Shown here: one piece after another, positions 34,186 to 64,000 of the stretch
Position numbering within the stretch: position 1 is the stretch's first letter
Layout: each line of letters begins with the position of its first letter
Assembly (NCBI GenBank): GCA_016927565.1
Contig: JAFGMK010000015.1
Coordinates: 1,149 to 65,148 of the forward strand
Direction: 5' to 3'
DNA length: 64,000 nt
From: Minisyncoccota bacterium
Lineage (GTDB): Bacteria; Patescibacteriota; Microgenomatia; PFEM01; JAFGMK01
Notes under the pieces: generated by a model
The model's database searches: none
Told to the model about the DNA's origin: nothing
What the model saw: only the letters and a program-made list of their open reading frames with translations
Program-made: the position numbers and the translations under genes

Positions 34186-34949
34186 TGGAGAAAAAGATTA
34201 AGCTGGATAAACTGGAAATACGGTATTTTCAAGAGGGAAAGAAAGCTCCTTTAATACTGCTTCACGGATGGGGAAAGTCGGGTCGGGTTTATAGTTTTCT
34301 GCAAAGATATTGCCGGCAGGAGTTTTGCTCAGCGGCTTTGGATCTGCCCGGCTTTGGCCAAAGCCCTCTTCCTCCGGAAACATGGGGAGTAAGAGAATAT
34401 GCTGATTCAGTCTTTAATTTTGCCGAAAAAAAGAAATGGGGATCTTTTTATCTTTTGGGTCATTCTTTTGGCGGCCGGATCGCTCTGGAAATGGCAATTT
34501 CTCACCCTGAAAGGATTAAAAAGTTAATCTTAACCGGAGTGCCTGTCCTGCGGAAATCTTCTTTTAAGCGTTGTTTATTTTGGCTGATCGCTAAGTCAGC
34601 CGGTCTTTTTTTTAAAATTCCGCCCTTTTCTTTCTCAAAAAAGTTTTTTTCTAAAGTTTTATATCATTTTACCGGCGAGCGGGATTATTCTCAAACCTCA
34701 GGCCGCTTAAGACAAATTTTTAAAAAAGTTATCAATTATGATCCCCGTTCCGGCCTACACGAAATTAAGGTTCCCACCTTAATTGTTTGGGGTGAGGATG
34801 ACAAGGTTACCCCGTTAAAAAATGCCTTTTTTCTTAACGAAAAAATTAAAAACATCCAGCTAAAGATAGTCAAAAAGGCTAATCATAAACTGCCCTATCA
34901 AAAACCAAAAGAGTTTGCCAGAATTGTTCTGGGTTTTTTAAAAGGTTAA
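34185..34949 (+). CDS. Alpha/beta-hydrolase fold protein
   Basis: LILLHGWGKSG and nucleophile elbow GHSFGG (LLGHSFGGRIAL). Confidence 0.65.
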   Translation: MEKKIKLDKLEIRYFQEGKKAPLILLHGWGKSGRVYSFLQRYCRQEFCSAALDLPGFGQSPLPPETWGVREYADSVFNFAEKKKWGSFYLLGHSFGGRIALEMAISHPERIKKLILTGVPVLRKSSFKRCLFWLIAKSAGLFFKIPPFSFSKKFFSKVLYHFTGERDYSQTSGRLRQIFKKVINYDPRSGLHEIKVPTLIVWGEDDKVTPLKNAFFLNEKIKNIQLKIVKKANHKLPYQKPKEFARIVLGFLKG

Positions 34950-36543: not shown

Positions 36544-37803
36544 ATGTTTGAACCGGTTAGTGTTTCGCTTTCACCGAATGCTTTTAAAGCGGATGTTTGG
36601 CGGTCAATGAGGGTTTTGGCCCGGCCATCCGATTGGTGCCGGGGCGAAGAACCGGCCAGGCTGGAAACGGAGTTTGAAAATTTTTTTCCCGGGGTTAAAG
36701 CCGCCAGCTTTGCCAGCGGCCGGACAGCCTTTTGGGCAATCCTGAAGGCATTAAAAATCGGCAAAGGCGACGAGGTGATTTGTCAGTCTTTCAGTTGTGT
36801 CGTGGTTGCCAATGCGATTCTCAAAGTTGGCGCCCGGCCTGTTTTTGGAGATATTAAAAAAGAAAGCTTCAATCTTGACCCTGAGGATTTATTAAAAAAA
36901 ATAACTCCCCGGACCAAAGCGATTGTAGTTCAGCATACCTTCGGCTTGCCGGCCGAAACGGAAAAAATTTTACAGATTGCCAGAGAGTATTCCTTATCGG
37001 TGATCGAAGACTGTGCTCATGGAATCGGTTTTGAGTATAAAGGTCAAAAAACAGGGGTTTTGGCTGATGCCGCTTTTTTAAGTTTTGGCCGGGACAAAGC
37101 AATTTCCTCTGTTTTTGGCGGAATGAGTTTGACGCGCCGTTTTGGACTTGCCCAGCAAATTAAAGGAATTCAGGAATCGCTTAATTATCCCTCTCCGGCT
37201 TGGGTAAGACAACAGCTTTTTCATCCGCCGCTGATGGCGGCTTTGTTGCCCGTTTACAATTTATTTTCTTTGGGAAAGATTATCTTATTGGGGTCCCAAT
37301 TGGGCCGGCTTTTATCCTTTCCTCTCAGTCAGGGTGAAAAAAAGGGTGTTTTTAATGAGAAGCTGATGGCCCGGATGCCTAATGGTTTAGCCGGGTTGGC
37401 CCGTTTTCAATTTTCCCGGCTTTCAAGATTCAATCAGATTCGTTCCCGAATGGTAGCTTATTATGCCGAAAATCTAAAAGAATTACCGGTTGAGTTGCCC
37501 GAATTCCAATCTCCAGACAAACAGCCGTTCCCTCTTTTGCGCTTTACGATCCGGATTGATAACCCCCAGGATCTTTATAAATTTGCCAAAAAACGGGGGG
37601 TGCTTTTAAACAACTGGTATTATCCGGCTGTCTCCCCCCAGGGAGTAGATTATAAAAAAATTGGCTATCAGCCGGCTGATTGCCCGGTAGCTGAAGCGGT
37701 TTCTGCCCGAGTAGTTAATTTGCCCACCCATCCGAAAATGACTTTAAATCAGGCTCAAAAGGTAGTTAAGATAATTAAAGATTTTTACAAAGAGAAAAGA
37801 TGA
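36544..37803 (+). CDS. DegT/DnrJ/EryC1/StrS family PLP-dependent sugar aminotransferase/dehydratase
   Basis: Fold-type I aminotransferase. SFSCVVVANAILKVGARPVFGDI and FGRDKAIS (PLP-lysine region) are typical of DegT-family enzymes. Confidence 0.75.
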   Translation: MFEPVSVSLSPNAFKADVWRSMRVLARPSDWCRGEEPARLETEFENFFPGVKAASFASGRTAFWAILKALKIGKGDEVICQSFSCVVVANAILKVGARPVFGDIKKESFNLDPEDLLKKITPRTKAIVVQHTFGLPAETEKILQIAREYSLSVIEDCAHGIGFEYKGQKTGVLADAAFLSFGRDKAISSVFGGMSLTRRFGLAQQIKGIQESLNYPSPAWVRQQLFHPPLMAALLPVYNLFSLGKIILLGSQLGRLLSFPLSQGEKKGVFNEKLMARMPNGLAGLARFQFSRLSRFNQIRSRMVAYYAENLKELPVELPEFQSPDKQPFPLLRFTIRIDNPQDLYKFAKKRGVLLNNWYYPAVSPQGVDYKKIGYQPADCPVAEAVSARVVNLPTHPKMTLNQAQKVVKIIKDFYKEKR

Positions 37804-38816
37804 TTAAAATAGAACCGGTTGCCGACAAGAAAATCTGGGAAAAGTTTGTTTTATCCCAATCGCCCACCACCTTTCTTCAATCGTGGAATTGGGGCGATTT
37901 TCATCAAAGTTTGGGAAAAAAGATTTTCCGGATTGGTTTTTGGGAGAAGAAAAAAATAACCGGAGCAGTTCTTCTGATTAAAGAAGAAGCTAAAAGAGGT
38001 GTTTTTCTGACTTGTCCCGGCGGGCCGCTGATTGATTGGGAGAACGGGCTTTATTTTCGGTTATTTGTAAAAAAAGTCAAAGAGCTTGCCAAAGAGGAAG
38101 GATGTGTTTTTGCTCGGGTTAGGCCGTCAATTAAGGCGATTGAAAAAAATAAAACGCTTTTTAAAAAAGCCGGCTTTGTCAAGGCGCCGATGCATCTTCA
38201 TGCCGAAACAACCCTCCAGATTGATCTCAACCGCCCGGAAACTGAGATAATAGCTAACATGGAAAAAAAGACCCGCTATTGTCTGCGCCGGGCTCTGAAG
38301 AACAAATTGACTGTTGAGATAAGCCGGAAAATTGAGGACATCGAATTGCTTTACCGGTTGCAAATGGCGGTGGTCGGGCGGCGGGGATTTGTTCCCTTCT
38401 CTAAAAACTTTTTTAAAAAACACTTTTTAGCTTTTGCAGAGGATAATCAAATCGCTCTGATCAAGGTTAGCTTAGACAAAGAGCTGTTGGCGATTGGAAT
38501 GTTTGTTTTCTACGGCGATACCGCCGTTTATCATTATTCCGGATCTGTTACCACTCAGCCTCAGGCTTTTGCTTCCTATGCCATGATTTGGGCTGCTGTT
38601 AAAGAAGCGAAAAGAAGAGGTCTTAAGGTTCTGGATCTGTGGGGAATTGCTCCCAGCGATGATCCTCGGCATCGTTTTGCCGGGGTGACCCGATTTAAAA
38701 AAGGGTTTGGCGGTAATCGCGTCGATTGGCTTCCTGCCCGCGACTTGCCTTTTTCTAAAAAATACTGGGGCATTTTTGCTTTTGAGAGCTTGCGCCGCAT
38801 TTTACGTCACTTGTGA
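37800..38816 (+). CDS. FemAB-family peptidyltransferase (peptidoglycan interpeptide bridge formation / lipid II aminoacyl transferase)
   Basis: N-terminal FLQSWNWGDFHQSLGKK...; C-terminal YHYSGS...DLWGI, typical FemABX signatures. Confidence 0.7.
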   Translation: MIKIEPVADKKIWEKFVLSQSPTTFLQSWNWGDFHQSLGKKIFRIGFWEKKKITGAVLLIKEEAKRGVFLTCPGGPLIDWENGLYFRLFVKKVKELAKEEGCVFARVRPSIKAIEKNKTLFKKAGFVKAPMHLHAETTLQIDLNRPETEIIANMEKKTRYCLRRALKNKLTVEISRKIEDIELLYRLQMAVVGRRGFVPFSKNFFKKHFLAFAEDNQIALIKVSLDKELLAIGMFVFYGDTAVYHYSGSVTTQPQAFASYAMIWAAVKEAKRRGLKVLDLWGIAPSDDPRHRFAGVTRFKKGFGGNRVDWLPARDLPFSKKYWGIFAFESLRRILRHL

Positions 38817-51042: not shown

Positions 51043-52107
51043 ATGTCTTCCGGGTTTAATTGGCTGATTCTCGTCTTAGTAATAATTCTGTTTATTTTTA
51101 GTCTGGCGCTTATTTTTAGTCTGGCGCCGGCGGATTTAGCCTTTCATGCTCTCTCGGTTTTGATCGGGCTGATCGGTTTCGGGGTGGCCAGTCGGATTGA
51201 CTATCGGCTACTGGATCGCTTTTCGGGCTGGCTGTTTTTTTTAACCAGCTCTTTTTTGCTGATAACTTTGTTTTTAGGGAGCCGGACTCGCCAGACGTTG
51301 CGCTGGATTAAACTTGGGTCTTTAACTTTTCAGCCTTCAGAGATAGTTAAGCCTTTTTTAATTTTGATTTTTGCTTCGTTGGCGGCTCGATCCAACTGGT
51401 CGTTCAAAGATTTTCTCATATCCTTGGCTGCTCTTATTTTGCCGGCTTTTCTTATTTTCCGGCAGCCTGATTTGAGCAGTGCTTTGATGATTGCTTTGGT
51501 TTGGCTGGTTATTTTTGTTTTCAGATTGAATAAAAAACAGCTGATTTTGTTGGGTTTTATTTCGCTGGTCGGAATTTTAGGAGGAAAATTTATCCTGAAA
51601 GATTATCAGGCAGATCGGATTTTCGGCTTTTTAAACCCTCAAGAAGACCCCTTGGGAATCAATTATCACTTAATCCAATCAAGAATTGCGGCCGGCTCCG
51701 GTAAGTTTTTCGGCCGGGGTTTGTTTCGGGGAACTCAGTCTCACCTTAGGTTTTTACCGGAAAGACAAAGCGATTTTATCTTTGCTTCTTTGGCCGAAGA
51801 GTTGGGTTTTGTAGGTTCGATTTCTCTTTTGACAATTTATTTTTTCTTGTTGGCCCAGATTCTAAAAACGGCTCGCCGGGCGAGCGATGAGTTTGGTTTT
51901 TTTATCTGTCTTGGCGTTTTCGGTCTTTTTTTCGGTCAGATATTTATCAACGTCGGCATGAATTTAGGCCTTTTGCCGGTAACCGGGATAACTTTGCCTC
52001 TAATTTCTTCGGGAGGTAGTTCTATTTTGGGCTTGATGATGGGTTTGGGGTTAGTGGAGAGTGTGGCCGGACGGGTAAAACCGGAAAGATGGATTGAAAT
52101 CAAATAA
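51043..52107 (+). CDS. rodA: SEDS-family protein RodA/FtsW paralog
   Basis: Second SEDS protein (QSDFIFASLAEELGFVGS motif), not in the dcw cluster. Confidence 0.7.
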   Translation: MSSGFNWLILVLVIILFIFSLALIFSLAPADLAFHALSVLIGLIGFGVASRIDYRLLDRFSGWLFFLTSSFLLITLFLGSRTRQTLRWIKLGSLTFQPSEIVKPFLILIFASLAARSNWSFKDFLISLAALILPAFLIFRQPDLSSALMIALVWLVIFVFRLNKKQLILLGFISLVGILGGKFILKDYQADRIFGFLNPQEDPLGINYHLIQSRIAAGSGKFFGRGLFRGTQSHLRFLPERQSDFIFASLAEELGFVGSISLLTIYFFLLAQILKTARRASDEFGFFICLGVFGLFFGQIFINVGMNLGLLPVTGITLPLISSGGSSILGLMMGLGLVESVAGRVKPERWIEIK

Positions 52108-54235: not shown

Positions 54236-54307
54236 GGGCTCGTGGCTCAGGGGTAGAGCGTTCCGTTCACATCGGAAAGGTCGATGGTTCGAATCCATCC
54301 GGGCCCA
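54236..54307 (+). tRNA. tRNA-Val (anticodon CAC)
   Basis: Hand-folded cloverleaf. Acceptor GGGCTCG/CGGGCCC (one GU pair), D-stem GCTC/GAGC, anticodon stem TTCCG/CGGAA with loop TTCACAT (anticodon CAC). T-arm GATGG-TTCGAAT-CCATC, discriminator A. No encoded CCA. Confidence 0.8.
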
Positions 54308-54430
54308 CAATAAAATTGCGGTGTCCGGATGAGACGAGAACCATTCACAGGCGGAGGAGAGATTGAGATTTTTGACTTGCTTGAATAACAAATGTTTCTC
54401 AACAAGTTAAAAAGGCCTTTTCGAGGCGTC

Positions 54431-54452
54431 TTCGAATCCATCCGGGCCCACA
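54431..54452 (+). repeat. Direct repeat copy 2 of tRNA-Val 3' end (att-like core)
   Basis: Exact 22-nt identity to tRNA positions 54288-54309. Confidence 0.8.
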
Positions 54453-54679
54453 ATTTTGAAGAATTTGAGCCGCCGCAAAAATAAAGAAAAAAAATAGCAA
54501 AATTTTAAAGAACTAAAACTTAAAGTCGAAGAATCCCCGCCGAAGGGAATTCTTCGACTTTGCTCAGGATGACAGTGAGAAAATTATCACTCAACAGCCT
54601 CAGTAAAGTTTTGCGGAACTCTTGAAACTAAAATTTATATATATCTTTAAAAAAGTGCGAAAATAGAAAGGCGGAAATT

Positions 54680-55516
54680 ATGGATCAATTAGAACAACCT
54701 CGACCCGCAAGAACCGAGAAGAGTAGTTCTGCTTTTGCTGTAATGTTAGAGGCTTTACGAGCACAGGAGAGCAGACTAGCTTTATTAGGACAAAGAGATG
54801 CAAGAGCTACTCGTGTATTTCAAGATTATCATCTCCCTGGGCAGGAATTTACAAGACAACAAGATGGAAAACAAGTGGAAGTGGTTAGGGGTTTAGTCGA
54901 CCCCGAAGAATATGCCATTCTCGTAAATAAATATAATGGTGGAGCTCAATTGCTAAAAATAGTAGATGAAGATCAAAAAGCATTAGCTGAGGGTTGGAAA
55001 ACAATTGGGCTGAAAGGTGAACCGCCCTTACATTCTTCTTTGGAAATTATTGTTGGCAATATAAACGATCCAAAAACTTGTTATAGGTATAAGGTTTTAG
55101 ATGCGCGCTCGACGGATGATTCTACCGGAGTAGTTATTACGGTTCAACAAAACATTGAACACGAAAGAGAAGGAGGGGCATTTATGCCATTTAGAGTTTC
55201 GGCTGGGAAAGAAAAGCCAGAACTAAGAGGAGAAACTTCCGTTCGCGACACTCCCCCATTATCAATGGCGGTGGTAAGCGACAGCGGGTTTACTGATTCT
55301 CAAAGAAGGTTAATGAGAAAAGATAATTTCCCACCTAAACTAGCGCTTGGAAGACGAACTGGAAGTCTAATAGCCCATCAACGAGTCCCTGAGGGAATGA
55401 CAAGATTTGCAGACGATGTCGCTAATTTAGAGATAGATTTACAAAGAGATAATCTCTGGGTAGTGGCGATAAGCGGAGACGCTGTAGAAGCCCAATGTAA
55501 AGCATTAAAATTGTGA
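54680..55516 (+). CDS. Hypothetical protein of foreign origin (no recognisable domain)
   Basis: Codon usage differs from neighbours: AGA Arg, TTA/CTA Leu and A-ending Ala/Gln codons, versus CGG/CGC Arg and CTT/TTG Leu in flanking genes. It is flanked by the att-like repeats. Confidence 0.5.
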   Translation: MDQLEQPRPARTEKSSSAFAVMLEALRAQESRLALLGQRDARATRVFQDYHLPGQEFTRQQDGKQVEVVRGLVDPEEYAILVNKYNGGAQLLKIVDEDQKALAEGWKTIGLKGEPPLHSSLEIIVGNINDPKTCYRYKVLDARSTDDSTGVVITVQQNIEHEREGGAFMPFRVSAGKEKPELRGETSVRDTPPLSMAVVSDSGFTDSQRRLMRKDNFPPKLALGRRTGSLIAHQRVPEGMTRFADDVANLEIDLQRDNLWVVAISGDAVEAQCKALKL

Positions 55517-55565
55517 TGAGTACCACTGAAGAATAGGTAGATTTTCTACTGAAAATCAGGAAAAT

Positions 55566-55603
55566 TAAAAGACAAAAAACTGATTCGAAGCGTCTTCGAA
55601 TCC
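55566..55603 (-). terminator. Rho-independent terminator for the minus-strand methyltransferase gene, overlapping att-like repeat copy 3
   Basis: On the minus strand: hairpin GATTCGAAG-ACG-CTTCGAATC (9-bp perfect stem, 55583-55603) followed by AGTTTTTTGTCTTTT. Confidence 0.45.
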
Positions 55604-55616
55604 ATCCGGGCCCACA
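55595..55616 (+). repeat. Direct repeat copy 3 of tRNA-Val 3' end (att-like core)
   Basis: Exact 22-nt identity to tRNA positions 54288-54309; 27-nt identity to copy 2 including the upstream GCGTC. Confidence 0.8.
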
Positions 55617-55620
55617 GGAT

Positions 55621-57156
55621 TCATTCTTTATTCAAAATTGCCAAAAAATCATTTCCCCAAAGGATATTGAGAGGGAAATAATTGCTGATTGGATAAAGAT
55701 AAATCAGGCGGTTGTATAACTTATCTTTCCAACTAAGTTCTGGTTTGATTACCGTCAGGTTAGTAGTTTTAATCTTGCCCTTAAAGCCATTTTTTTTAAA
55801 CAGCTTTCTCAAGTAGAAGTAGGTCGGCTCGTTGACATGAACTTTTTTCTGGTGCTCGGTTCTCAAGTCATGCCATCGAGGCAAGTTAGGATATTTTTTG
55901 CCTGTTAACCAATTAGAAAATGAGATTAGGAAAGTGCTGATTGGATAGCACCAAAATCGATAAATTAAGTCGTTAAACCACCGATTAGGAGCGGTATGGA
56001 CAATCAGAACGCCGTTAGATTTAAGAATTCTTTTAATTTTTTTCAAAATTATTTCCTGTTCCCAAAGATAGAGATGTTCCAGAATCTCAACTAAAACCAC
56101 CACATCGAAACTGTTTTTTCTAAAACTTAGTTTTTTTGCATCCATCAATTTAAAGCCGGCTCTTTTTCTTACCCCGGGAGGCTGTTTTTCGAAGGCTTCT
56201 TGGGCTAAGTTAATTGCCTCTTTTGAGTAGTCAATTCCGATGGCATTTAAGCCTTTTTTGGCTGCCCAAAAAACTAACTCGCCTCGGCCACAACCAATAT
56301 CAAGGAGCCTGAATCCTCTTTCCAGAGGAATTTCACCTGCAATCCGTTTTAAGCGGGGTTCAAGTATTTGCCCCTGGCTTTTTTTAAATTCTTTATAGCC
56401 GGAACAGGATTTTAAGAAATACTGTCGAGTATAGAGTGCCGGGTCAACTCTTTCAGAAGGTAAGTTTTTTTTCTTCTGAATGTAAAAGATTGTTCGAATG
56501 GTGGATCCCAGGTCGAAAATCGGCAGAATCGGGTTAAGACAGAAAAGCCAAAACCGCCGATAGCGGAGAAGGTGATAAAGCCGGGGAATTTTAAAATAAA
56601 TTTTTTGAAAAAGAAGCCAAAAAGTTAAATTGGCATTTTTCCCGGTGGTTATTTTGGCTCGAGGATCAGCCTGCCGGATTAAATTTAAAATAGTTTCTTT
56701 TTCCGGATGACCCAATTTGAGGTGTTCTTCGAGATAGCCGTGTTTTTGACAGGACTGACGGTGACAAAGAAACTGATGAAATTTTCTATGAGCCTCGAGA
56801 GATTGGTGGCCGGTGGGAACAGCCAAAATTACCGTTTTCCTGGCAACGCGGAGCATTTCTTTAATTGCTTCAGCTTGCTTTTTTTGACTGGTCAGATGTT
56901 CGAGAGTGTCAACAGAGACAACTAATTCAGCGCTTTTGTCCGGTAGTGGCAGTTTTTCGGCGCTGGTTTTGATTAGTTCGGTGTTGGGCAGGGGTTTTTT
57001 GACAAAATTCAGGTCGCAGTCAATAATCCGGTAGTCAGGCAAATACCATCCCAAGCCTTCGCCAGTACCGCCAATCTCGACAATTTTTTTGCTTTCAAGC
57101 TTATTTTTTTTGATTGCCCGAACAATCGGCGCGTATCTTTGAATGATATCCAGCAT
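55621..57156 (-). CDS. Tandem two-domain class I SAM-dependent methyltransferase
   Basis: Two Rossmann methyltransferase motif-I regions (IVEIGGTGEGLG... and LLDIGCGRGELV...), each followed by a motif-III/post-I acidic region (SVDTLEHL / VLVEILEHL). Confidence 0.7.
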   Translation of the reverse strand: MLDIIQRYAPIVRAIKKNKLESKKIVEIGGTGEGLGWYLPDYRIIDCDLNFVKKPLPNTELIKTSAEKLPLPDKSAELVVSVDTLEHLTSQKKQAEAIKEMLRVARKTVILAVPTGHQSLEAHRKFHQFLCHRQSCQKHGYLEEHLKLGHPEKETILNLIRQADPRAKITTGKNANLTFWLLFQKIYFKIPRLYHLLRYRRFWLFCLNPILPIFDLGSTIRTIFYIQKKKNLPSERVDPALYTRQYFLKSCSGYKEFKKSQGQILEPRLKRIAGEIPLERGFRLLDIGCGRGELVFWAAKKGLNAIGIDYSKEAINLAQEAFEKQPPGVRKRAGFKLMDAKKLSFRKNSFDVVVLVEILEHLYLWEQEIILKKIKRILKSNGVLIVHTAPNRWFNDLIYRFWCYPISTFLISFSNWLTGKKYPNLPRWHDLRTEHQKKVHVNEPTYFYLRKLFKKNGFKGKIKTTNLTVIKPELSWKDKLYNRLIYLYPISNYFPLNILWGNDFLAILNKE

Positions 57157-57219
57157 TAAGAGAATTTTAACATTTCTTGCCTATTGAATTTTTTCTGTTA
57201 TTCGTTTTATTATTAAAGT

Positions 57220-57636
57220 ATGGATCTGGCTGATTTTAAAAGCAAAGCGAGATTGGCTGACTCTTTTTTTGAAGAGCTTTCTGCCCGGCTTGATTTTAGA
57301 TCTTTGGTAGTGCTTTTGCTGGTGGCGCTGGTGGTTCCGATTTCGCTGATGGTGGCTTTGTGCCGGAATAATCTTTCCGTAGATGAAGCGATAATTAAGG
57401 CAAAACTTTTAACGACTTCGGGCAAACCCGCTCAGGCAACTAGGTTGTTGATGTCTTTAAGAAAGAAGAATTTGACCGAACAGTCTGAAAAAAAATTGAT
57501 TTTAGCGCTGATGGAGAATAACCGCCTTGATCAGGGACAGGTAGCAGGCGCTTCAGCTAAGCCGACGGTTACCCCCAAAGTCTCTGAAAGAGGAAGTGAT
57601 TTTACTTCTGATCTTGAAGCCTGGTTGACTGAATAA
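57220..57636 (+). CDS. Hypothetical protein with one TM helix
   Basis: ORF only. No motif recognised. Confidence 0.3.
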   Translation: MDLADFKSKARLADSFFEELSARLDFRSLVVLLLVALVVPISLMVALCRNNLSVDEAIIKAKLLTTSGKPAQATRLLMSLRKKNLTEQSEKKLILALMENNRLDQGQVAGASAKPTVTPKVSERGSDFTSDLEAWLTE

Positions 57637-57910
57637 GCATTGGCGGAATCATTTATCCGGCATAAGTTTCCTCTTCTTTTCCAAGCGGCAGTATTTTAAA
57701 ACCCAAATCCGGTTATTGAGGGGTTTGCCTCGGGATTGCGCCTCGCTCCGCCATTTTAAGCCTTGAAATATCTTGCCGATAAGGTTAAAATCCCGAATTA
57801 TACTAAGAGTCTGCTCCTCGGGTTCTGCTCTTGAAAAAGGATTGGTCTGTTTTGTGTGGGTCAAAAAAATCAGCCAGCCCTGCCAGCCCTAAAACAAAAA
57901 ATCCAAAAAC

Positions 57911-58708
57911 ATGGATATTAAAGTAAGAAAAGTTGTTATTTTTGCCGCCGGGAAGGGTACTCGTCTTTCACCGATTACTTCTTATATTCCCAAAGAAATG
58001 CTCCCGATTATTAACTTTCCGGTAATTCATTATGTTTTGGAAGAAAGTCTCGTGGATGGAATAGAGCAAGTCATCCTGGTTATTAAAAAGAATAAATCAT
58101 TAATTGCTGAATACGTCCGAGATTATCTGAACCGGAGAGAGGGAAAAAAGAAAGTTGGCTTGGAAATTGTTTATCAAAAAGATACCCATTACGGTACGGC
58201 GGCAGCCTTGATTGATGCCCGAAATCACTTAAAAAAAGAGCCTTTTTTAACAATGTTTGCCGACAGTTTTGCTCTCAAAAGAGATAATCGTCTCAAATTT
58301 TTGCTTCGAGTCTATCGGCAATATCGGGCTCCGGTTATAAGCCTGATCCCGGCAGGACCAAAAGAAGCCTGCACTTATGGAATGGTTGAGGCCGAAGAAG
58401 TAGAAAAGGACGTGGTATCAATTAAAAGACTCGTCGAGAAGCCGGGAAGGAATCTAAAACCGCCGGCGTATGCAGCGCCAAACGGCTATCTTTTAACTCC
58501 CGGCATTATTCCTTATCTTGACCGGTTAACGCCGGAAAAAAATGGCGAATTATCGCTTGTTGCGGCGATTACCGAGTATCTTGAAAAGAATAAAGTATAC
58601 GGGTCGGTTTTCAAAGGTCTTTTTTTTGAAGCGGGGAATCAGGTTGATTTTGTTGATTCCCAGACAAAAATGATTTTAGAGAGAAAAGATTTAAAAAGAG
58701 GGTATTAA
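57911..58708 (+). CDS. Sugar-1-phosphate nucleotidyltransferase, UTP--glucose-1-phosphate uridylyltransferase (GalU)-like
   Basis: KVVIFAAGKGTRLSPITSYIPKEMLPI N-terminal signature; the G-x-G-T-R-x-x-P and KEMLP motifs are typical of GalU. Confidence 0.7.
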   Translation: MDIKVRKVVIFAAGKGTRLSPITSYIPKEMLPIINFPVIHYVLEESLVDGIEQVILVIKKNKSLIAEYVRDYLNRREGKKKVGLEIVYQKDTHYGTAAALIDARNHLKKEPFLTMFADSFALKRDNRLKFLLRVYRQYRAPVISLIPAGPKEACTYGMVEAEEVEKDVVSIKRLVEKPGRNLKPPAYAAPNGYLLTPGIIPYLDRLTPEKNGELSLVAAITEYLEKNKVYGSVFKGLFFEAGNQVDFVDSQTKMILERKDLKRGY

Positions 58709-58850
58709 GTACGATTTCCGGCTATTCCGGGTAAGCTTCTGGTGGATTTTGAAACTTTACGACTGGATTTCTTCGGCAGAAAATCTTGGAGAAAGTAAAC
58801 TCTAAGTCCTATAGTATAGACTTTTATCTGTAGATATAATCTCATAAAGT

Positions 58851-59321
58851 ATGACCATTGAAGTACTGCTACCTAGAAAAAATTTAGATCCGTTTCGGAG
58901 AGAAAGTTTAAATGATCGTGAAGCTGGATTATTGAAAGCCCTACTTGCGGAATATGGAGTGACTTCAGAAACTCACTCCCGGGTTGTTGAGTTGTTTGCC
59001 GGAGATGCTCCTCATGCATTAATGATGGCAAATTTAGGCCGGGATGTGAGAAATATAGTTTGTGTGGATCGTTATTTGCCGGTTGAACCTCTTGTTGAGG
59101 GGGTGAAGTGGCGGCATCTTGATTTGTTTCAATTATCCGAAGCTTTGATTTTTGGCGAACCTTTACCCCAATCGGTGATAAATCTTCAATATAAAGGAGA
59201 CGTCGTTATTGCGATCAACGAATGGTGGAGAAATAGGGAAACGTTTGATAATGTCGTTGATTATTTTTGCAGGCCTGGTGGATTAGCTTATACACTTCGA
59301 GGTGTGAGAATCCGGGAATAG
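58851..59321 (+). CDS. Hypothetical protein
   Basis: ORF with somewhat atypical codon usage. No confident motif. Confidence 0.3.
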   Translation: MTIEVLLPRKNLDPFRRESLNDREAGLLKALLAEYGVTSETHSRVVELFAGDAPHALMMANLGRDVRNIVCVDRYLPVEPLVEGVKWRHLDLFQLSEALIFGEPLPQSVINLQYKGDVVIAINEWWRNRETFDNVVDYFCRPGGLAYTLRGVRIRE

Positions 59322-59642
59322 AACGAAAACTCTCAGTATTATCCTTGACTCTCCTTAGAATTCTAAGCCAGATACAAATTGGGGCTATCTTGGTGAGGTT
59401 TAGATGCCCGTCTTAGTGGTGGCCGATTAAATTTTTTTAGGATCCGATTGCCAATTAAAAGCCCGATTGATCTAAAAATAAGAGCCAGGGTAGCGGCAGT
59501 GGCAACCAAAAAAGTCTCTATCATGCAGGCGGCAATCATGAGGTTGCTTTTGCAATTCAAGCTGGCCCAGGAAATTCAAATAACATCAATTACCGGAGTC
59601 AAAAGCTAATAAAAGCGAGCAAGTGAGAGTCCCAAAAATTGG

Positions 59643-62276
59643 CTAATTCAGCAACTTTGGCAGAAAAAACATTAATTGGAAGTTATACATCCAAGCCATA
59701 TCTGACTGATTTTGCTCTAAAGCTTCTCTAGCTTTTTCAAGTAATTCATTTGAATACTCGAAATAAATTACTTTAATCAGAGGAATGGTTTGGCCTTTAT
59801 CTGTTTTGCGTTGTAAGTCTTTAGCCAGTTTTTGTAAAATTTTCTCTTGTGCCCAAATTTTTTTGTCGGTAATTTTAGGCTGTAATTTAACTTTAGCTTT
59901 GCTTACAATAACTTTCCAGGTATCAAATAGATCATTAATTATTCCTTCATACCCGGGAAAACTTTTCACTATTTCTTCCTGCTCTTGCTTTAGAAAACAA
60001 TGATTTAAAGCTATTAAAGAAGTTTGGACTAGGCTTTTGGCCTGGTTAAATTTTTGCTGTTTAAGGCTTTTTTCAAGCAGGTTTAAAAAAGGAATTATTT
60101 TGCAATTCTCTAGGTTTAATTCAAAAATTCGAGCTTTGGCGCTTTGGAAAGAGTTTAAGCCTTCAGGATCTTCTAGGGAAAAGTTAGGTTTAGCCGGGTC
60201 AAGCAAAAAAGAATCTACTTTAAGTTGATGGGTGGGAAACTGGTACTCGCGGATCTCAACATTTTCATCGGTATCAAGCCGGCCGAGCAGCAGGCGATAG
60301 TAACCCTGACCAGTACCGGTGATCCTAATTTGATATGTCTCATCTAGGGGATTAGGAATTAAAACAAAGTTTGCCTCACTATCATAAAAAGCATTAGAAA
60401 TTTCCGGTCCGGTGGTCTGATGGCCGATTTGATTCCCATGAATATCGGTGATAAGAATTTTGGCCGGCGATCGGATTAGAAAAATCAAAGCATTCTTAAG
60501 TTTCTCGAGTGGTGACAGGGTCGGGTTGGGAGAAAGATCAAGTAATCCGAAGAGTTGTTGGATTGCCTCTGGTTCTTTAACTAAGTCGTTGTGTTCCAGG
60601 GCAAAGTCATAAGCCTGAACTCCATTAAAAGTGGCGCTTTTAACCAGAACTGTTTCATCTCCCTGATTGGAATAAATCTTTGCGGATGAATAATCTTTGG
60701 CCCTATCATTATATTCACAGGTTGTTCCCGGGCAGAAATGGATAGGCTCGCCATCTTCCCAGAGGCCGAGGGCATAGTGAGCCCAGTTGGCATGGGGAGT
60801 TGTAATCGAGCTGACTTTAATTGATTCAAGGGTAGGAAAGCCGTAGCCGTAAAAAAGGCTGGTTTTGTTTTTGAGGTCTTGAGAAAAAGTTTGATTTAGT
60901 TGGCTTAAAGTTTGATTCTGATGAATATGATCAGCAACGTCTTTGAAGAGGCCGCTTTTACTATCAATCAGGAAATCGTGAGTAGGGAGAAGGTCGGCAA
61001 CTGAAGGAAAAGCCCGCCGGATGGTGTCTTTGGGATGTTCTCCTGGCTTCTTATTGGTAAACAAAAGTGTTTCTAAAAATAATTTGTATAGATTTTTAAC
61101 TTCCCAGATTTGACCGCCCTCCCAAGCGGCATAGGCGTGTACTGCTCCTTGATGGGGACTACCCAAAGTAATTAGTTTTTCGGTTTTATCTGGGTTAGCC
61201 TGAGCAAAAACTCGGCTAATCATTCCTCCCATGGAGTGGCCTACGAGATCCACTTTTTCTGTTGGATCTGTTTTGGCTTCGACAAACTCTTTAAGTTTGG
61301 CGGCGTTATCGGAGAATGGTTTGCGCCAATCATAACAAAAGAGATGCCAATCCTGATCTTTTTCAAGTCCGGCTTGATAGAAAGCATTAATTAGATTGTG
61401 GTAAAAAAAGAATCTGGCAGGTGAAAATAAATGCCAATTTTCTCCATTTTCCCCGCTAATCAATCCTTTATTCCAGCACGCTGTCATTCCAGGAAGAAAG
61501 ATGAGGGGAGTATATTCCATGTCATATATGAGAATAGAATCGACAGTTAGGCTGGTCCAGAGATCCCCAATTCCTTGGGTTGAGTTATTGCCAAACCATA
61601 TTGTATCGGGCCGCATGAGTGTTTCGGGTGAAACATATTTGAGCTCGTCATCAATAAAGATACTATATTTGTTATCTTTGTATTTAAGTTCTACAAAATG
61701 AAAGTCTAAATCAATTCCATTTGATTGGAATTTTATAATTTCACTTAAGGAGCAGTTTGGGGTATTATAGCAAGTTCCTGTATAAGATAAAATTAATCCA
61801 TAAACATTGTCTTGCCAAATTTGGAAAAACTTATATTGCGAATAAAGTGGATTGTTAATTGGCGTGTCGGTGGTTGTGTGGTATGGTGGTAGCTTTGTTC
61901 CGATTGCAAAGCCGACTCCTTTAGATTCCACTCGATTATATTTGAAGCCTACTTTAAGAGTAAAATCGCCCTGATTTGGAAATGGTCTAGGAATGTCATC
62001 TCTATAGGCAACGAAGGGGAAGGTTGAAGTTTTCTCTGCAGCGAGGAGGATTTTTCCAGCTTCTAAGGTTATTTGTCCTTCTTTTTCATAAGCCTGCCAA
62101 GTATCAGAATTCAGAGTGTTGAAATCCTCTTTAAAAAATATATTTTTAGCAAAAGCAGAGCCTCTAATATTAAGAAGTAAGGAAAACCAGAAAAGTAAAA
62201 ACAAAATACCTTTTGCATGTTTAGATCTCTTTGTTTTAAAATTAGCAAGAAAAGACACCTTGTAGAAATTAGACAT
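59643..62276 (-). CDS. Large secreted multi-domain protein: signal peptide, ConA-like lectin/glucanase-like N-domain and LCAT/PGAP1-like alpha/beta-hydrolase (lipase/acyltransferase) domain
   Basis: Signal peptide (LFLLFWFSLLLNIRGSAFA). YDWR motif followed by nucleophile elbow GHSMGG (CYDWRKPF...VDLVGHSMGGMISR), as in LCAT/PDAT/PGAP1-type lipases. AT-rich codon usage unlike the core genes. Confidence 0.6.
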   Translation of the reverse strand: MSNFYKVSFLANFKTKRSKHAKGILFLLFWFSLLLNIRGSAFAKNIFFKEDFNTLNSDTWQAYEKEGQITLEAGKILLAAEKTSTFPFVAYRDDIPRPFPNQGDFTLKVGFKYNRVESKGVGFAIGTKLPPYHTTTDTPINNPLYSQYKFFQIWQDNVYGLILSYTGTCYNTPNCSLSEIIKFQSNGIDLDFHFVELKYKDNKYSIFIDDELKYVSPETLMRPDTIWFGNNSTQGIGDLWTSLTVDSILIYDMEYTPLIFLPGMTACWNKGLISGENGENWHLFSPARFFFYHNLINAFYQAGLEKDQDWHLFCYDWRKPFSDNAAKLKEFVEAKTDPTEKVDLVGHSMGGMISRVFAQANPDKTEKLITLGSPHQGAVHAYAAWEGGQIWEVKNLYKLFLETLLFTNKKPGEHPKDTIRRAFPSVADLLPTHDFLIDSKSGLFKDVADHIHQNQTLSQLNQTFSQDLKNKTSLFYGYGFPTLESIKVSSITTPHANWAHYALGLWEDGEPIHFCPGTTCEYNDRAKDYSSAKIYSNQGDETVLVKSATFNGVQAYDFALEHNDLVKEPEAIQQLFGLLDLSPNPTLSPLEKLKNALIFLIRSPAKILITDIHGNQIGHQTTGPEISNAFYDSEANFVLIPNPLDETYQIRITGTGQGYYRLLLGRLDTDENVEIREYQFPTHQLKVDSFLLDPAKPNFSLEDPEGLNSFQSAKARIFELNLENCKIIPFLNLLEKSLKQQKFNQAKSLVQTSLIALNHCFLKQEQEEIVKSFPGYEGIINDLFDTWKVIVSKAKVKLQPKITDKKIWAQEKILQKLAKDLQRKTDKGQTIPLIKVIYFEYSNELLEKAREALEQNQSDMAWMYNFQLMFFLPKLLN

Positions 62277-62348
62277 TATAATTTTTTCTTTGTCAAGGTC
62301 TTTGAATGCTTTTAAGAAAGCAACTAAAAAAAGAGACCTAGTTTAAAT

Positions 62349-63158
62349 TTGAAAAAATCAAGCAATAAGGAATTAGATAACATAGTGCGGCTTTTTTCGG
62401 ATAAATTGTGGTATAGTCCATCAGATATTTTTATAAGGGCAGCAGAAGCCTTAATTTGGAATCATCAGAAATTTACTCCTCCGGTTTTGGAAATTGGCTG
62501 TGGAAATGGCAGAATCAGTAGCCTTCTTTTTATGAATAAAACAAAGGTTGATGTTGGCGTTGATATTGATGCGCATGAAATAGAGAATGCTAAAAAAATA
62601 AAACTATATAGCAGATTGGCCGTTGCAGATGCGGCCGAGCTTCCCTTTCAAGATAGGAAATTTAATACCGTTGTAGCCAATAGTACTTTTGAACATATAA
62701 GAAAAGACATTTCTTCGGTGTGCGAGGTCTTTCGTATTTTAAAGGAGGGTGGTTCTTTTATGTTTACTGTTCCCACCAGAAGGTTTGAGAGCGCTCTTTT
62801 GTCTACAATAATAAATAAAAATAATTTACAAAAAATTAATGATAGACTTAAGCATTTTCATTATAGAGAAGTTGATGAATGGATCGCAATACTGAAGAAT
62901 AATGGTTTTAGCATGACTAGTTATCAAGAATATATGTCGGATAACGCTGTTAAAGATTGGTATAAGCTTTTTAGGCTTAGCACTTTCAAAGTGAGAGGTC
63001 GCGAATTGTGGTCTTATTTAGAAAATTTTTCTCATAAAAAAATAATTCCGAAGAAAATTTTTTCCATTTTGGTTTCAAGTTTTTTGCTAAAACTTTACCA
63101 TGAAATGTTTGTGCCGGGCGGCACTTGGTTATTTATTGCTGCTCGAAAATTAAAATGA
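62349..63158 (+). CDS. Class I SAM-dependent methyltransferase
   Basis: Motif I VLEIGCGNGRIS and motif post-II/III ...TVVANSTFEHI. Confidence 0.7.
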   Translation: MKKSSNKELDNIVRLFSDKLWYSPSDIFIRAAEALIWNHQKFTPPVLEIGCGNGRISSLLFMNKTKVDVGVDIDAHEIENAKKIKLYSRLAVADAAELPFQDRKFNTVVANSTFEHIRKDISSVCEVFRILKEGGSFMFTVPTRRFESALLSTIINKNNLQKINDRLKHFHYREVDEWIAILKNNGFSMTSYQEYMSDNAVKDWYKLFRLSTFKVRGRELWSYLENFSHKKIIPKKIFSILVSSFLLKLYHEMFVPGGTWLFIAARKLK

Positions 63159-63240
63159 TGCGACGAAAAACATGTAGCACGTTTCTGGGATAATCAGAGT
63201 CAATTAAAAGTTGTCCCGGATAGGGGGGGTGCCATGAATT

Positions 63241-64000
63241 ACGTCGGCATCGATTTGCATAAAAGGTTTTCGCAGCTTACGGTTTTTAATGAAGCAGGAG
63301 AAATTTTGGATAGAGAAAAAGTTGATAACTAAAAAGCAGCGATAGTTTCGCGCCTTAACAATTTTGATCAACCCGGTAAAGCAGTTATTGAAGATACTTT
63401 TGCCTGGGACTGGTTGGCAGACTTGCTGGCTGATAATAGAATAGAGGTAATGTTAGCTCATCCCCAAAAAGTCAAGATAATTGCCCCGGCCCAAATTAAG
63501 ACAAACAAGAATGGCTCTGAAATCTTGACTAAGCTTTCAAAAGCCGATCTGATTCCTGAGGCTTGCTATTCGCCTAAGGAAGAAAGAGAGGCTAAAGAGG
63601 TAAGATGTCGGGCTTCTCTGGTTGGGCTTAAAGACTCAGATCAGGAATCGAATCCATTCCCTTTTCTGCAAGACTAACAGTCAGGAAGCGGAGGGGGTAT
63701 GGCGATCTGTTCGGCAAAAAAGGCCGGCTCTTTTTAAAAGGACTTGATTTAGGAGAGAAGTTTAACTTTGCTCTTAAGCGGTATTTGGCAATACTGGAGT
63801 TTCCAGAAGTCCAAGTCAAGGAAGCTGATCAAGAGCTAAAGGGGATCTCTAAAGAGGATAAGCAAACCAAACTGCCCGAGCAGTTGCATTGCGGCGCTCT
63901 AATCCTTATCCTGGCAGGCTTTTTATCAGAAGATAAACAGCAAGAAGGGTCATGGCAAAGCCAGGGTGGCTGCGGCCGGAAAGATGCTTAGTCAGATTTG
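63241..64000 (+). mobile_element. IS110-family transposase gene, frameshifted/degenerate (pseudogene), continues past window end
   Basis: MNYVGIDLHKRFSQLTVFNEAGEIL matches the IS110 (DEDD) N-terminal VGIDVxK motif and then hits a stop. VMLAHPQKVKIIAPAQIKTNKNGSEILTKL...LIPEACYSPKEEREAKEV and following segments continue the IS110 consensus in two other frames. Confidence 0.6.

Follow-up and report, generated by a model that had tools for sequence, protein, structure and literature searches.

On the minus strand of the window (the whole 64,000-nucleotide stretch of DNA that was analysed), we located a complete ORF of 877 codons that runs without interruption in the ORF listing (Table 1). An NCBI protein identical to the 877-residue product is annotated 'alpha/beta fold hydrolase [Candidatus Pacebacteria bacterium]', and the full-length AlphaFold model of the protein had a pLDDT of 92.8 and a pTM of 0.80. 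From the N-terminus onward, the chain is ordered as a signal peptide, a ConA/laminin-G-like domain, an alpha/beta-hydrolase, an Ig-like domain and a helical bundle. Sequence and model together indicate a predicted secreted four-domain hydrolase of an ultra-small CPR bacterium; that the host is a bacterium with a reduced genome, as the first-pass annotation had supposed, was borne out.

Table 1. Features of the hydrolase gene, with positions in the window and in the protein
Feature	Residues	Window positions	Strand	Basis or remark
Complete ORF, 877 codons plus stop		59643..62276	-	ORF listing; coordinates checked by translation
Predicted Sec-type signal peptide	1-43	62148..62276	-	Sequence inspection and hydrophobicity scan
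ConA-like/laminin-G-like beta-sandwich	44-254	61515..62147	-	Foldseek and profile searches
Alpha/beta-hydrolase domain	255-585	60522..61514	-	Pfam, Foldseek, secondary structure from model
YDWRKP block, LCAT-family hallmark	315-320	61317..61334	-	Alignment of 72 sequences
Nucleophile elbow GHSMGG	346-351	61224..61241	-	Predicted catalytic Ser348 at 61233-61235
Subfamily-specific loop CPGTTCEYNDRAKDYSSAK	515-533	60678..60734	-	Just upstream of the predicted catalytic Asp
GDETV motif	539-543	60648..60662	-	Predicted catalytic Asp540 at 60657-60659
Predicted catalytic His within EHNDL	562	60591..60593	-	Invariant in 72 sequences
Ig-like beta-sandwich	596-692	60201..60491	-	Two structure models
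Helical bundle, seven helices	707-877	59646..60158	-	Model

The N-terminus had been read as a signal peptide, and all three of its regions were recognizable: a basic n-region with six Lys/Arg residues, an h-region (ILFLLFWFSLLL) with a hydrophobic core of 12 residues and a mean Kyte-Doolittle value of 2.83, and a c-region, SAFA↓K, in which AFA↓K at residues 41-44 has the pattern of a signal peptidase I site. The same pattern was present in 27 of the 30 homologs with an intact N-terminus, right before the conserved FxDDF that opens the next domain, and export of the protein via Sec is predicted. Cysteines point the same way. C267 and C314, the latter directly preceding the YDWRKP block, co-varied perfectly (both in nine sequences, neither in 61, one alone in none), and Cys725 and Cys760 of the helical bundle co-occur; because co-varying pairs of this kind imply disulfides, we counted them toward secretion. 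No anchor motif was found in the 877-residue protein.

Pfam searches placed the hydrolase domain among enzymes of lipid esters. The LCAT model (PF02450) scored 46.3 bits against a gathering threshold of 21 (E 4.5e-12) and the PGAP1 model (PF07819) 38.4 bits against 24.3 (E 1.5e-9), with further matches to Abhydrolase_1, Palm_thioest and Lipase_2. Generic alpha/beta-hydrolase models aside, every family matched at E <1e-3 (LCAT, PGAP1, Palm_thioest and Lipase_2) acts on lipid or lipid-like esters, and LCAT, PGAP1 and Palm_thioest were each matched by all 32 aligned homologs. The LCAT/PGAP1-type motifs that had been proposed from the sequence, YDWRKP and GHSMGG, were thereby corroborated, and an alignment of 72 sequences supported a complete Ser348/Asp540/His562 triad with all three residues invariant. 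H347, G350 and G351 around the nucleophile, G539 beside the Asp, and W317 were likewise invariant, and Y315, D316 and R318 were conserved in at least 90% of the sequences. The description of YDWR as a lid motif did not hold: the AlphaFold model puts it in the core, flanked by strand 310-312 and helix 321-335 and immediately ahead of the nucleophile strand. The cap, about 150 residues long, is an insertion that follows the GSPHQG turn and precedes the Asp strand. The loop preceding the Asp is confined to the closest relatives; its Cys515/Cys520 pair was complete in six sequences and half present in one, and the loop was absent from 65. The best reading of these motifs and of the model is that the domain is a catalytically competent serine acyl-ester hydrolase of the lipase/LCAT/PGAP1 clan.

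Identity to characterized enzymes was 13-16% over structural alignments, and sequence similarity was limited to short motifs. Within those limits, the sequence profile found its best PDB matches among the family I.1/I.2 lipases of Burkholderia cepacia, B. glumae, Pseudomonas and Proteus (e.g. PDB 1YS1, 3LIP, 4GW3; E 1.8e-7 for 1hqd/1ys1). The matched region covers VDLVGHSxGG...GTPHxG, so that the GHSMGG segment aligns with the GHSQGG elbow of the Burkholderia lipases, and NDGxV...SA...H follows in register. GDETV aligned with the NDGVV that contains the catalytic Asp264 of B. cepacia lipase, at a low score but with exact spacing; His562 aligned with the lipase His, and its distance of 22 residues from the Asp is that of the family I.2 enzymes (D540/H562 in the target, 264/286 in the lipase chain). 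Structural searches agreed, with lipases of Proteus, Acinetobacter, Pseudomonas and Burkholderia found by Foldseek at E 8e-7 to 9e-6 and family I lipases reaching a TM of 0.41-0.55 on the target. Unlike the target, these are single-domain enzymes of about 320 residues, and none was detected by the profile of the YDWR segment. No gene for a lipase-specific foldase (Lif) adjoined the target or its orthologs in 34 related loci.

The best Foldseek match overall was BlEst2, a lipase of Bacillus licheniformis (PDB 6WPX/6WPY; E 1.3e-9, 558 columns against a 450-residue chain, rmsd 17.7). It is grouped with the related EstA3 of Thermoanaerobacter tengcongensis in bacterial lipolytic family XIV. In BlEst2 a C-terminal beta-sandwich comes after the alpha/beta-hydrolase, a domain order that the target seems to share, and the BlEst2 alignment runs past the hydrolase into the Ig-like region. 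In EstA3, which is BlEst2-like, the C-terminal sandwich is required for C12-C16 substrates (PMC10816834); the title of an unpublished reference cited in PMC10816834 states that the BlEst2 sandwich inhibits the pro-form. The two proteins nevertheless differ in several respects. Identity to the target is 14%, the sequence profile matched BlEst2 at E 0.099 only, the target sandwich alone did so at a non-significant E of 0.24, and the YDWR-segment profile did not match it; moreover, at 487 residues, BlEst2 has no room for the N-terminal lectin-like domain or the C-terminal helical bundle.

The YDWR segment has its own affinities. When the PDB was searched with a profile of residues 255-343, which excludes the elbow, LCAT (E 0.014-0.02) and LPLA2 (E 0.58) were the sole families detected, the aligned stretch reading YDnLik..agy...YDWR. 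Along PG...YxxL...GY...YDWR the target runs collinearly with LCAT (LCAT/LPLA2, PF02450; PDB 4XWG, 4X90), residues 3-10 (PVILVPG) and 99-128 (YLHTL...YDWR) of the LCAT chain aligning with about 258-264 and 292-318 of the target, and both proteins have the Ser/Asp/His triad and GHSxG, then a G-x-P-x-x-G turn. Both LPLA2 and LCAT combine phospholipase A with transacylase activity. Membership in the LCAT Pfam family and the LCAT/LPLA2-specific segment would be expected if LCAT-type transacylation were the main activity, with an acyl group passing from a donor phospholipid to a lysolipid, sterol or alcohol and scavenged lipids being remodeled at the cell surface. We consider this quite unlikely. 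The LCAT model aligned over only 150 of its 392 positions (66-215), to target residues 289-442, and about 90 residues separate PVILVPG from YLHTL in LCAT versus about 28 in the target, an LCAT insertion of about 60 residues being absent after the first strand. The region after the first core strand is the membrane-binding subdomain of LCAT and LPLA2. The Asp-His spacing, 22 in the target and 32 in LCAT/LPLA2, and the overall fold follow the hydrolytic bacterial lipases, neither LCAT nor LPLA2 was among the best 50 Foldseek structural matches, and the sequence gives no sign of an acceptor site.

The N-terminal domain had been described as lectin-like, and the fold was recovered as a beta-sandwich. 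Foldseek matched it to the carbohydrate-recognition domain (CRD) of the L-type lectin Emp47p (E 4.6e-9, TM 0.59-0.63 on the target) and also to GH16 glucanases (lichenases) and a legume-lectin domain, while homologs matched Pfam Laminin_G_2/G_3 and PF06439 and the N-domain profile matched neurexin LNS domains at E 0.0028. The domain type is not fixed. Among orthologs at the same locus, the N-module is swapped between ConA-like domains, Kelch/NanM-like propellers, and GH130-, GH43- or GH32-like propellers (E 1.7e-12, 3.2e-14 and 1e-7, respectively), and the catalytic core stays the same; all of the exchanged modules are sugar-recognition folds. Carbohydrate esterases, too, typically have lectin- or GH-like modules fused to the esterase, an observation that we counted against lipid scavenging.

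The exchange of the ConA-like domain for these propellers, together with a GH16 laminarinase that was touched by a mixed family profile (E 2.2e-4), led us to weigh a feeding carbohydrate esterase that would strip acetyl or acyl groups from environmental polysaccharides under the guidance of its lectin- or GH-like modules, comparable to the multidomain esterases that act on plant cell walls. Such an enzyme seems unlikely here, as the significant matches of the catalytic domain, generic alpha/beta-hydrolase models excepted, are to lipid-ester families and the CE1-type Pfam 'Esterase' model reached an E of only 0.044; the structural neighbors found by Foldseek are lipases, and the cap is typical of lipases. 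In the N-domain of the target, a GH16-type ExDxxE motif was absent, no Asp or Glu was invariant (the invariant positions being only Trp, Pro, Gly and Cys), and with a clean profile the domain resembled laminin-G binding domains instead. We presume that the domain is a glycan-binding module without a catalytic signature.

C-terminal to the hydrolase, the first-pass annotation had described a helical region of about 350 residues. The AlphaFold model revised this view: the hydrolase extends to about residue 585, a beta-sandwich follows, and only the last 171 residues are helical. A separate model of residues 590-877 was also of high confidence (pLDDT 95.5, pTM 0.91). The Ig-like sandwich opens with a conserved SPA motif, in which S603 and P604 were invariant among 32 relatives; searched alone, it gave non-significant matches only, among them DUF4425 (E 0.03) and CopC as well as BlEst2. 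The helical bundle had no Foldseek match in the PDB and no Pfam or NCBIfam match. Most of the best 150 of the 3,656 relatives aligned up to about residue 670-720, and the bundle was detectable in about 22 of those 150. As judged from sequence and model, it appears to be an orphan domain, with no detectable relative outside its own family.

The distribution of the gene bears on where it came from. A reading along the lines of the first-pass annotation would make it an effector gene of eukaryotic LCAT/PDAT type, foreign in composition and acquired recently. GC is mildly low (0.386 against a mean of 0.431 for the 51 ORFs of the window), and the upstream flank carries an IS110-like remnant at a distance of about 1 kb. 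However, the z-scores were only -1.53 for GC and -1.56 for GC3 (0.351), and the mild AT shift is common to the neighbors, several of which deviate more. The family, with thousands of bacterial members, numbers 3,656 cluster representatives at E<=1e-3, and every full-length relative comes from Microgenomates-group CPR. In more than 20 Microgenomates-type genomes the gene is found at one and the same syntenic location, and among solved structures bacterial lipases come closest. Foreign acquisition is contradicted by composition, synteny, family size and nearest structures alike and is very improbable, and neither the foreign composition nor the eukaryote-typical character attributed to the gene could be upheld. 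The gene is a vertically inherited core gene of its lineage.

Its surroundings also raise the question of whether the enzyme acts on the cell that makes it. Across Microgenomates-group CPR, the conserved neighborhood contains an IleRS-type synthetase, FtsW, L21, L27, ParB, a signal peptidase and the hydrolase, and the gene has a core-genome position amid cell-division and envelope genes. In relatives of only 24-49% identity, it lies divergent from a GT2(-GT4)/Wzy_C/Big_6 block 29-115 bp away, and tblastn placed a GT2/Wzy_C/Big_6 block upstream of the gene in a dozen loci. No gene was conserved up- or downstream across the 34 related loci; a methyltransferase-like protein of about 230 residues was common only to the two closest relatives. 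The divergent GT2/Wzy_C glycan cluster beside the gene in many relatives could point to a role at the cell's own envelope, and we counted it against the lipid-scavenging reading.

Under an own-envelope role, the enzyme would deacylate a surface glycolipid or acylated glycopolymer of the cell, or transfer its acyl groups, much as PGAP1 takes an acyl chain off GPI, with the ConA-like domain holding it on the glycan made by the neighboring glycosyltransferase/Wzy_C genes; in a protein that lacks an anchor motif, glycan binding could also retain the enzyme on the cell. PGAP1, the GPI-inositol deacylase, offers a conceptual parallel as a serine hydrolase acting on a glycolipid, from which it takes off an acyl chain; besides the Pfam score above threshold, the profile matched about 35 residues of its structure (PDB 8K9R) with an E of 6.7e-4. 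The Pfam match spans just about 50 residues around the elbow (target 332-381, model positions 83-135 of 233), though, and PGAP1 is a large eukaryotic ER membrane protein whose accessory domains are not common to the target. In the window, a methyltransferase and an IS-like remnant replace the GT2/Wzy_C block beside the gene, which is still intact. The N-module type changes while the Big_6/Wzy_C/GT2 block stays constant, so the two do not co-vary, and adjacency in tiny, highly syntenic genomes is a weak sign of a functional link. On balance, we regard an own-envelope role as possible but on the unlikely side; an esterase with envelope or glycan substrates is nonetheless a serious rival to the lipid-scavenging reading.

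CPR bacteria account for a large share of bacterial diversity. Neither fatty acids nor phospholipids can be synthesized by most of them, but their membranes consist of normal acyl lipids with an enrichment of lysolipids, for which phospholipase A has been proposed as the source (PMC7242380). In Vampirococcus, a secreted phospholipase has been proposed to damage host membranes and yield usable lipids (PMC8080830). The Vampirococcus lugosii protein Vamp_34_196 (PMC8080830) resembles the target in this proposed logic, in which a CPR bacterium that makes no phospholipids would export a lipolytic enzyme. All full-length relatives of the target that were found belong to Microgenomates-group lineages; the target therefore cannot be a general CPR route for lipid uptake. 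In keeping with these published ideas on lipid acquisition (PMC7242380, PMC8080830), scavenging or remodeling of host or neighbor membranes, as had been suggested for this gene, is plausible.

Together, the triad, the lipid-ester family matches, the predicted export and the sugar-recognition modules favor a secreted, glycan-targeted enzyme of lipase or phospholipase type that may plausibly serve lipid scavenging, a reading to which we assign a probability of roughly 0.5. As a glycan-targeted lipase, the protein would be exported by Sec and cut by signal peptidase after Ala43, and its ConA/laminin-G-like module would then bind a glycan on the target surface. Ser348 would serve as the nucleophile with His562 and Asp540, and the oxyanion hole may be formed by the backbone after Pro262-Gly263 plus Met349. 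Acyl esters of membrane lipids or glycolipids would be cleaved to fatty acids and lysolipids, with the Ig-like sandwich perhaps acting, like those of BlEst2 and EstA3, on access or on the preferred chain length. The most likely purpose would be the harvest of lipids from host, neighbor or dead cells by a CPR bacterium unable to make them, and the swappable N-module would set which surface is attacked.

For the question of where CPR bacteria obtain their lipids, a conserved, predicted exported lipase-type enzyme offers a concrete and expressible candidate; the high-confidence model and clear catalytic residues leave the gene open to direct tests. Within one major CPR group the gene keeps a constant place in the core genome, and the targeting module of its product is exchanged among sugar-recognizing folds. 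Should the enzyme act on its own envelope or on polysaccharides, it would still represent a large uncharacterized family, with more than 3,600 cluster representatives and an orphan helical domain. A bolder version of the scavenging reading, which we hold to be doubtful, is a lineage-specific lipid-harvesting device of Microgenomates-type CPR bacteria: a surface-released LCAT-clan phospholipase A/transacylase that would be steered by its interchangeable glycan module to the envelope glycans of particular host or neighbor cells and would supply lysolipids and fatty acids for the membrane. If so, the N-module would be a determinant of host range, and a part in lipid handling might fall to the orphan helical bundle.

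The hydrolase is encoded by an uninterrupted 877-codon ORF, and its product is identical in sequence to an NCBI protein that carries no name beyond 'alpha/beta fold hydrolase [Candidatus Pacebacteria bacterium]'; Pacebacteria fall within the phylum Minisyncoccota (Patescibacteria, or CPR). The sole plausible start is the ATG at 62276. No clear Shine-Dalgarno sequence was found before this ATG, and scanning for promoters and terminators near the gene gave no more than shuffled sequence did (12 promoter-like sites vs 11.2 expected). A perfect TTGACA upstream of the start is followed, after 10 nt, by a TATAAT that overlaps the ATG (62275-62296, minus strand), a spacing that does not fit a sigma-70 promoter. 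An AlphaFold2 model built from 72 homologs (pLDDT 92.8, pTM 0.80) gave the domain layout in the table, with coordinates verified via translation, and residues 590-877 modeled separately gave the same picture (pLDDT 95.5, pTM 0.91). The first-pass annotation had described an about 350-aa helical C-terminal region, but this layout indicated that only 171 of these residues are helical, while about 130 belong to the hydrolase, including its catalytic Asp and His, and about 100 form a beta-sandwich.

Features of the window (nucleotide positions) and domains of the hydrolase (residues, AlphaFold2 model)
Feature	Position	Strand	Content or remarks
Surface-polysaccharide locus, about 20 kb	852-21588	+	Wzx-type flippase, GT2 and GT4, three PMT-like membrane proteins, hexapeptide acyltransferase, mannose-1-phosphate guanylyltransferase (ManC), initiating Bac_transf, DUF4012 protein
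Wzy_C of the same locus	10467-11939	+
dcw/peptidoglycan cluster	26414-47457		MraW, PBP, Mur ligases, MurA-like, MraY, MurD, FtsW, MurG, FtsA, FtsZ
Small extra alpha/beta-hydrolase inside dcw cluster	34185-34949		Abhydrolase_1 E 4e-29
DegT-type aminotransferase inside dcw cluster	36544-37803
FemAB-family protein inside dcw cluster	37800-38816
Conserved block leading to hydrolase	48-54 kb
Second FtsW/RodA paralog	51043-52107
tRNA-Val	54236-54308
278-aa orphan	54680-55516		GC3 0.27 (z -3.3), codon-usage outlier (z +3.4), no Pfam match
511-aa double methyltransferase	55621-57156	-	In related loci L001 and L002, N-terminal half forms its own ~230-aa gene
Sugar-nucleotidyltransferase	57911-58708
138-aa ORF			Between tRNA-Val and hydrolase
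156-aa orphan			Between tRNA-Val and hydrolase
Hydrolase	59643-62276	-
Disordered segment	residues 1-20
Hydrophobic helix of signal peptide	residues 21-35
N-terminal beta-sandwich	residues 46-252
Alpha/beta-hydrolase	residues 258 to about 580		Large inserted cap
Second beta-sandwich	residues 596-692
Seven-helix bundle	residues about 707-877
Class I SAM methyltransferase	62349-63158		Divergent from hydrolase, 72 bp apart
Three short ORFs in different frames	63234-63747		Run to window end

The N-terminus carries six Lys/Arg, the stretch ILFLLFWFSLLL (mean Kyte-Doolittle 2.83) and a SAFA/K junction, and such a signal-peptide arrangement stands directly before the conserved FxDDF of the next domain in 27 of the 30 homologs having an N-terminus. 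The eight cysteines form four within-domain pairs that co-vary in the family: C267 and C314 occur together in 9 sequences, are both absent from 61 and are never found singly, and C515/C520 and C725/C760 behave similarly. This is how disulfides in an exported protein would be expected to look. The hydrolase has no lipobox or sortase motif, and its gene is 5.5 kb from one for a type I signal peptidase.

Pfam searches matched the hydrolase to LCAT (46.3 bits vs a gathering threshold of 21, residues 289-442 on model positions 66-215 of 392) and to PGAP1 over about 50 residues (38.4 bits vs 24.3), with weaker matches to Abhydrolase_1, Palm_thioest and Lipase_2; an NCBIfam search returned nothing but elbow matches far below threshold. 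Invariant across 72 sequences were W317 (YDWRKP), H347-S348-x-G350-G351, P374 and G377 (GSPHxG), G539-D540 (GDxTV) and H562, and these include a complete Ser348/Asp540/His562 triad. Judged from its sequence, the protein is almost certainly a serine esterase that is both exported and active. A profile limited to residues 255-343, which tells LCAT-specific similarity apart from that of the generic nucleophile elbow, was run against the whole PDB and found LCAT (E 0.014-0.02, in an alignment that includes the PVILVPG segment), LPLA2 (E 0.58) and no other meaningful match. Because this elbow-free profile meaningfully matches LCAT and LPLA2 alone, the YDWR block is a real mark of the LCAT family, as the first-pass annotation had proposed. 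A single-sequence PDB search with the 60-residue YDWR segment gave only spurious titin and APOBEC matches; the family profile succeeded instead. The description of YDWR as a lid motif had to be abandoned: in the model it sits within the core, following strand 310-312 and preceding helix 321-335, and the C267-C314 covariation links it to the loop after Pro262-Gly263. In LCAT, about 90 residues that form a membrane-binding subdomain separate PVILVPG from the aligned segment containing YDWR; the target has about 28 there. It is very unlikely that the enzyme works mainly by LCAT-style transacylation.

The best PDB matches of the family profile were family I.2 lipases (E 1.8e-7), followed by PGAP1 (6.7e-4), LPLA2 (7.5e-4), LCAT (0.014) and BlEst2, a Bacillus licheniformis lipase (0.099). 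The NDGVV...SA...NH of Burkholderia lipases runs in register with GDgTV...SA...nH of the target family profile, and D540 and H562 fall on Burkholderia chain positions 264 and 286, the known catalytic Asp and His; both pairs are 22 residues apart. Foldseek placed BlEst2 first (E 1.3e-9) and returned next, at E 8e-7 to 9e-6, lipases of Proteus, Acinetobacter, Pseudomonas and Burkholderia, with LCAT and LPLA2 absent from the top 50 structures. From these profile, motif-register and structural matches, the domain is therefore a member of the lipase clan: its N-terminal half is of LCAT type, its catalytic Asp and His are placed as in family I, and its overall build appears to follow BlEst2. The class of the family matches and structural neighbors favors acyl-lipid or glycolipid as the likely substrates.

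The lectin-like fold suggested for the N-terminal domain was borne out. Residues 44-254 matched the L-type lectin domain of Emp47p in a Foldseek search of the PDB (E 4.6e-9, TM 0.59-0.63 on the target), as well as GH16 lichenases/laminarinases, a legume-lectin domain and botulinum-toxin binding domains, and 6 of 32 homologs matched the ConA-like Pfam family PF06439. A clean profile of the target-type domain matched neurexin LNS/laminin-G domains (E 0.0028), and its members matched Laminin_G_2, Laminin_G_3 and PF06439. GH16 glucanase activity was considered and rejected: the GH16 match in the sequence-profile search came from a mixed profile, and the alignment of the domain contains no invariant acidic residue, no ExDxxE motif and no conserved catalytic acids. 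Given this and the laminin-G matches, the domain is a predicted binding module of ConA/LamG type and no glucanase.

The second beta-sandwich, which opens with an SPA motif invariant among 32 relatives, is common to most of the family; alignments of the top 150 representatives typically run from residue ~25 or 255 to ~670-720, and about 22 of these representatives also have a detectable helical bundle. Residues 590-877 alone gave nothing significant against the PDB (the best were Ig-like sandwiches, DUF4425 at E 0.03 and then CopC), the C-terminal part of BlEst2 matched them only at E 0.24, the bundle had no PDB match, and Pfam and NCBIfam had none over the C-terminal domains. In EstA3, a BlEst2-like esterase, deletion of the C-terminal sandwich abolished activity on C12-C16 esters, and an unpublished reference cited in the same paper speaks of inhibition by the C-terminal domains of BlEst2 (PMC10816834). 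By analogy with these two enzymes, the target sandwich probably modulates access or chain-length preference.

The gene had been described as foreign in composition and eukaryote-typical, and neither description survived. Against the window's 51 ORFs its GC is 0.386 (z -1.53), its GC3 0.351 (z -1.56) and its codon-usage distance unremarkable (z 0.71), and several neighbors are more deviant. Four relatives at 27-49% identity have the same neighborhood, of which the window order is the mirror image: on one side, a class I tRNA synthetase, FtsW/RodA, L21, L27, ParB, S26 signal peptidase and 1-3 small ORFs lead to the hydrolase, and on the other a divergent GT2(-GT4)/Wzy_C/Big_6 block begins 29-115 bp from it. 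Tblastn with the neighboring genes as probes located S26 and ParB downstream (usually L27, L21 and FtsW too) in 22 of 34 related loci, the others being mostly short contigs or ending soon after the hydrolase gene. When all intervening ORFs were searched by tblastn across the 34 loci, neither a foldase of Lif type nor any other partner gene, fused or adjacent, proved to be conserved. An exhaustive search yielded 3,656 cluster representatives at E<=1e-3, of which 436 reached E<=1e-30. From the shared synteny and the family size, we conclude that the gene has been inherited vertically and is a positional ortholog within a large bacterial family; composition and synteny lead us to reject a foreign origin, and there is next to no chance of a recent foreign acquisition. 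The GT2/Wzy_C adjacency, together with the PGAP1 analogy, would suit a role on the cell's own envelope, which we consider unlikely.

Scanning species-representative genomes turned up 372 relatives, and the full-length ones were all from the Microgenomates group of CPR (Shapiro-, Collier-, Beckwith-, Roizman- and Woesebacteria). Some MAGs labeled Pseudomonadales or Gammaproteobacteria, with the same CPR synteny, were also among the relatives. Related loci L007, L008, L012, L022, L031 and L033 and further 'MAG TPA_asm' loci, whose records bear the title 'uncultured Pseudomonadales' or 'Gammaproteobacteria', carry the hydrolase and the S26-ParB-L27 neighborhood, usually with L21 and FtsW. Their labels are almost certainly wrong, since this synteny is of the Microgenomates type.

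At the shared syntenic locus, a single ORF keeps the hydrolase-plus-sandwich core while its N-terminal module varies. The module is ConA-like (target type or PF06439) in the window and in related loci L012 and L016 (Pfam E 1.4e-7 and 3.3e-10), a Kelch/NanM-like propeller in L015 and L031 (8.6e-16 and 3.5e-14), a GH130/GH43/GH32-like five-bladed propeller in L024, L025 and L029 (1.7e-12, 3.2e-14 and 1e-7), and 300-400 aa with no Pfam match in L020, L023 and L034. All of these ORFs begin with signal peptides, the recognizable modules are all carbohydrate-recognizing folds, and the neighboring Big_6/Wzy_C/GT2 block is constant whatever the module. This swapping strengthens the prediction that the enzyme is directed to glycans and suggests that lineages differ in the glycan they target. 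The GH-like modules in orthologs could also point to a carbohydrate esterase for feeding, which is quite unlikely. In CPR, lipid synthesis is generally missing, lysolipids are abundant, and phospholipase A acting on the lipids of other cells has been suggested as their source (PMC7242380); for Vampirococcus, a secreted phospholipase was put forward for lipid acquisition (PMC8080830). Because of these proposals, we rank first, at a probability of about 0.5, a glycan-targeted lipase or phospholipase that harvests external lipid. The first-pass annotation was thus largely correct in what it observed, apart from the helical extent and the composition, and its interpretation is partly supported. 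Literature searches on LCAT-like lipases of Patescibacteria found no paper on this family; the protein is a multidomain secreted lipase-clan hydrolase whose architecture is undescribed and whose helical domain is an orphan, and it offers a candidate on which lipid acquisition by CPR can be tested.

The window consists of core CPR genome. The five ORFs between tRNA-Val and the hydrolase (54.7-59.3 kb) have no counterpart at this position in relatives, and this stretch (54309-59600) looks like a small insertion beside a tRNA gene. In many relatives a small, conserved, secreted Ig-like protein with Big_6/Glucodextran_B matches (1368-2030 in related locus L001, 2409-3131 in L002, 3560-4279 in L005) occupies the far end of the hydrolase-adjoining GT2/Wzy_C block; it is absent from the window. 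The divergent methyltransferase sits where relatives carry that block, is the most AT-rich ORF of the window (GC 0.337, z -3.2) and has its sole homolog among the fetched loci in L015 (43% identity). The three short ORFs beyond it (MNYVGIDLHKRF..., ...HPQKVKIIA... and ...LKTQIRNRIHSLF), when joined conceptually, match PF01548 at E 4.4e-4 and 20.5 bits, below the cut-off of 29, and look like a putative frameshifted remnant of an IS110-family transposase, which, near the contig end, may explain the missing GT2/Wzy_C block.
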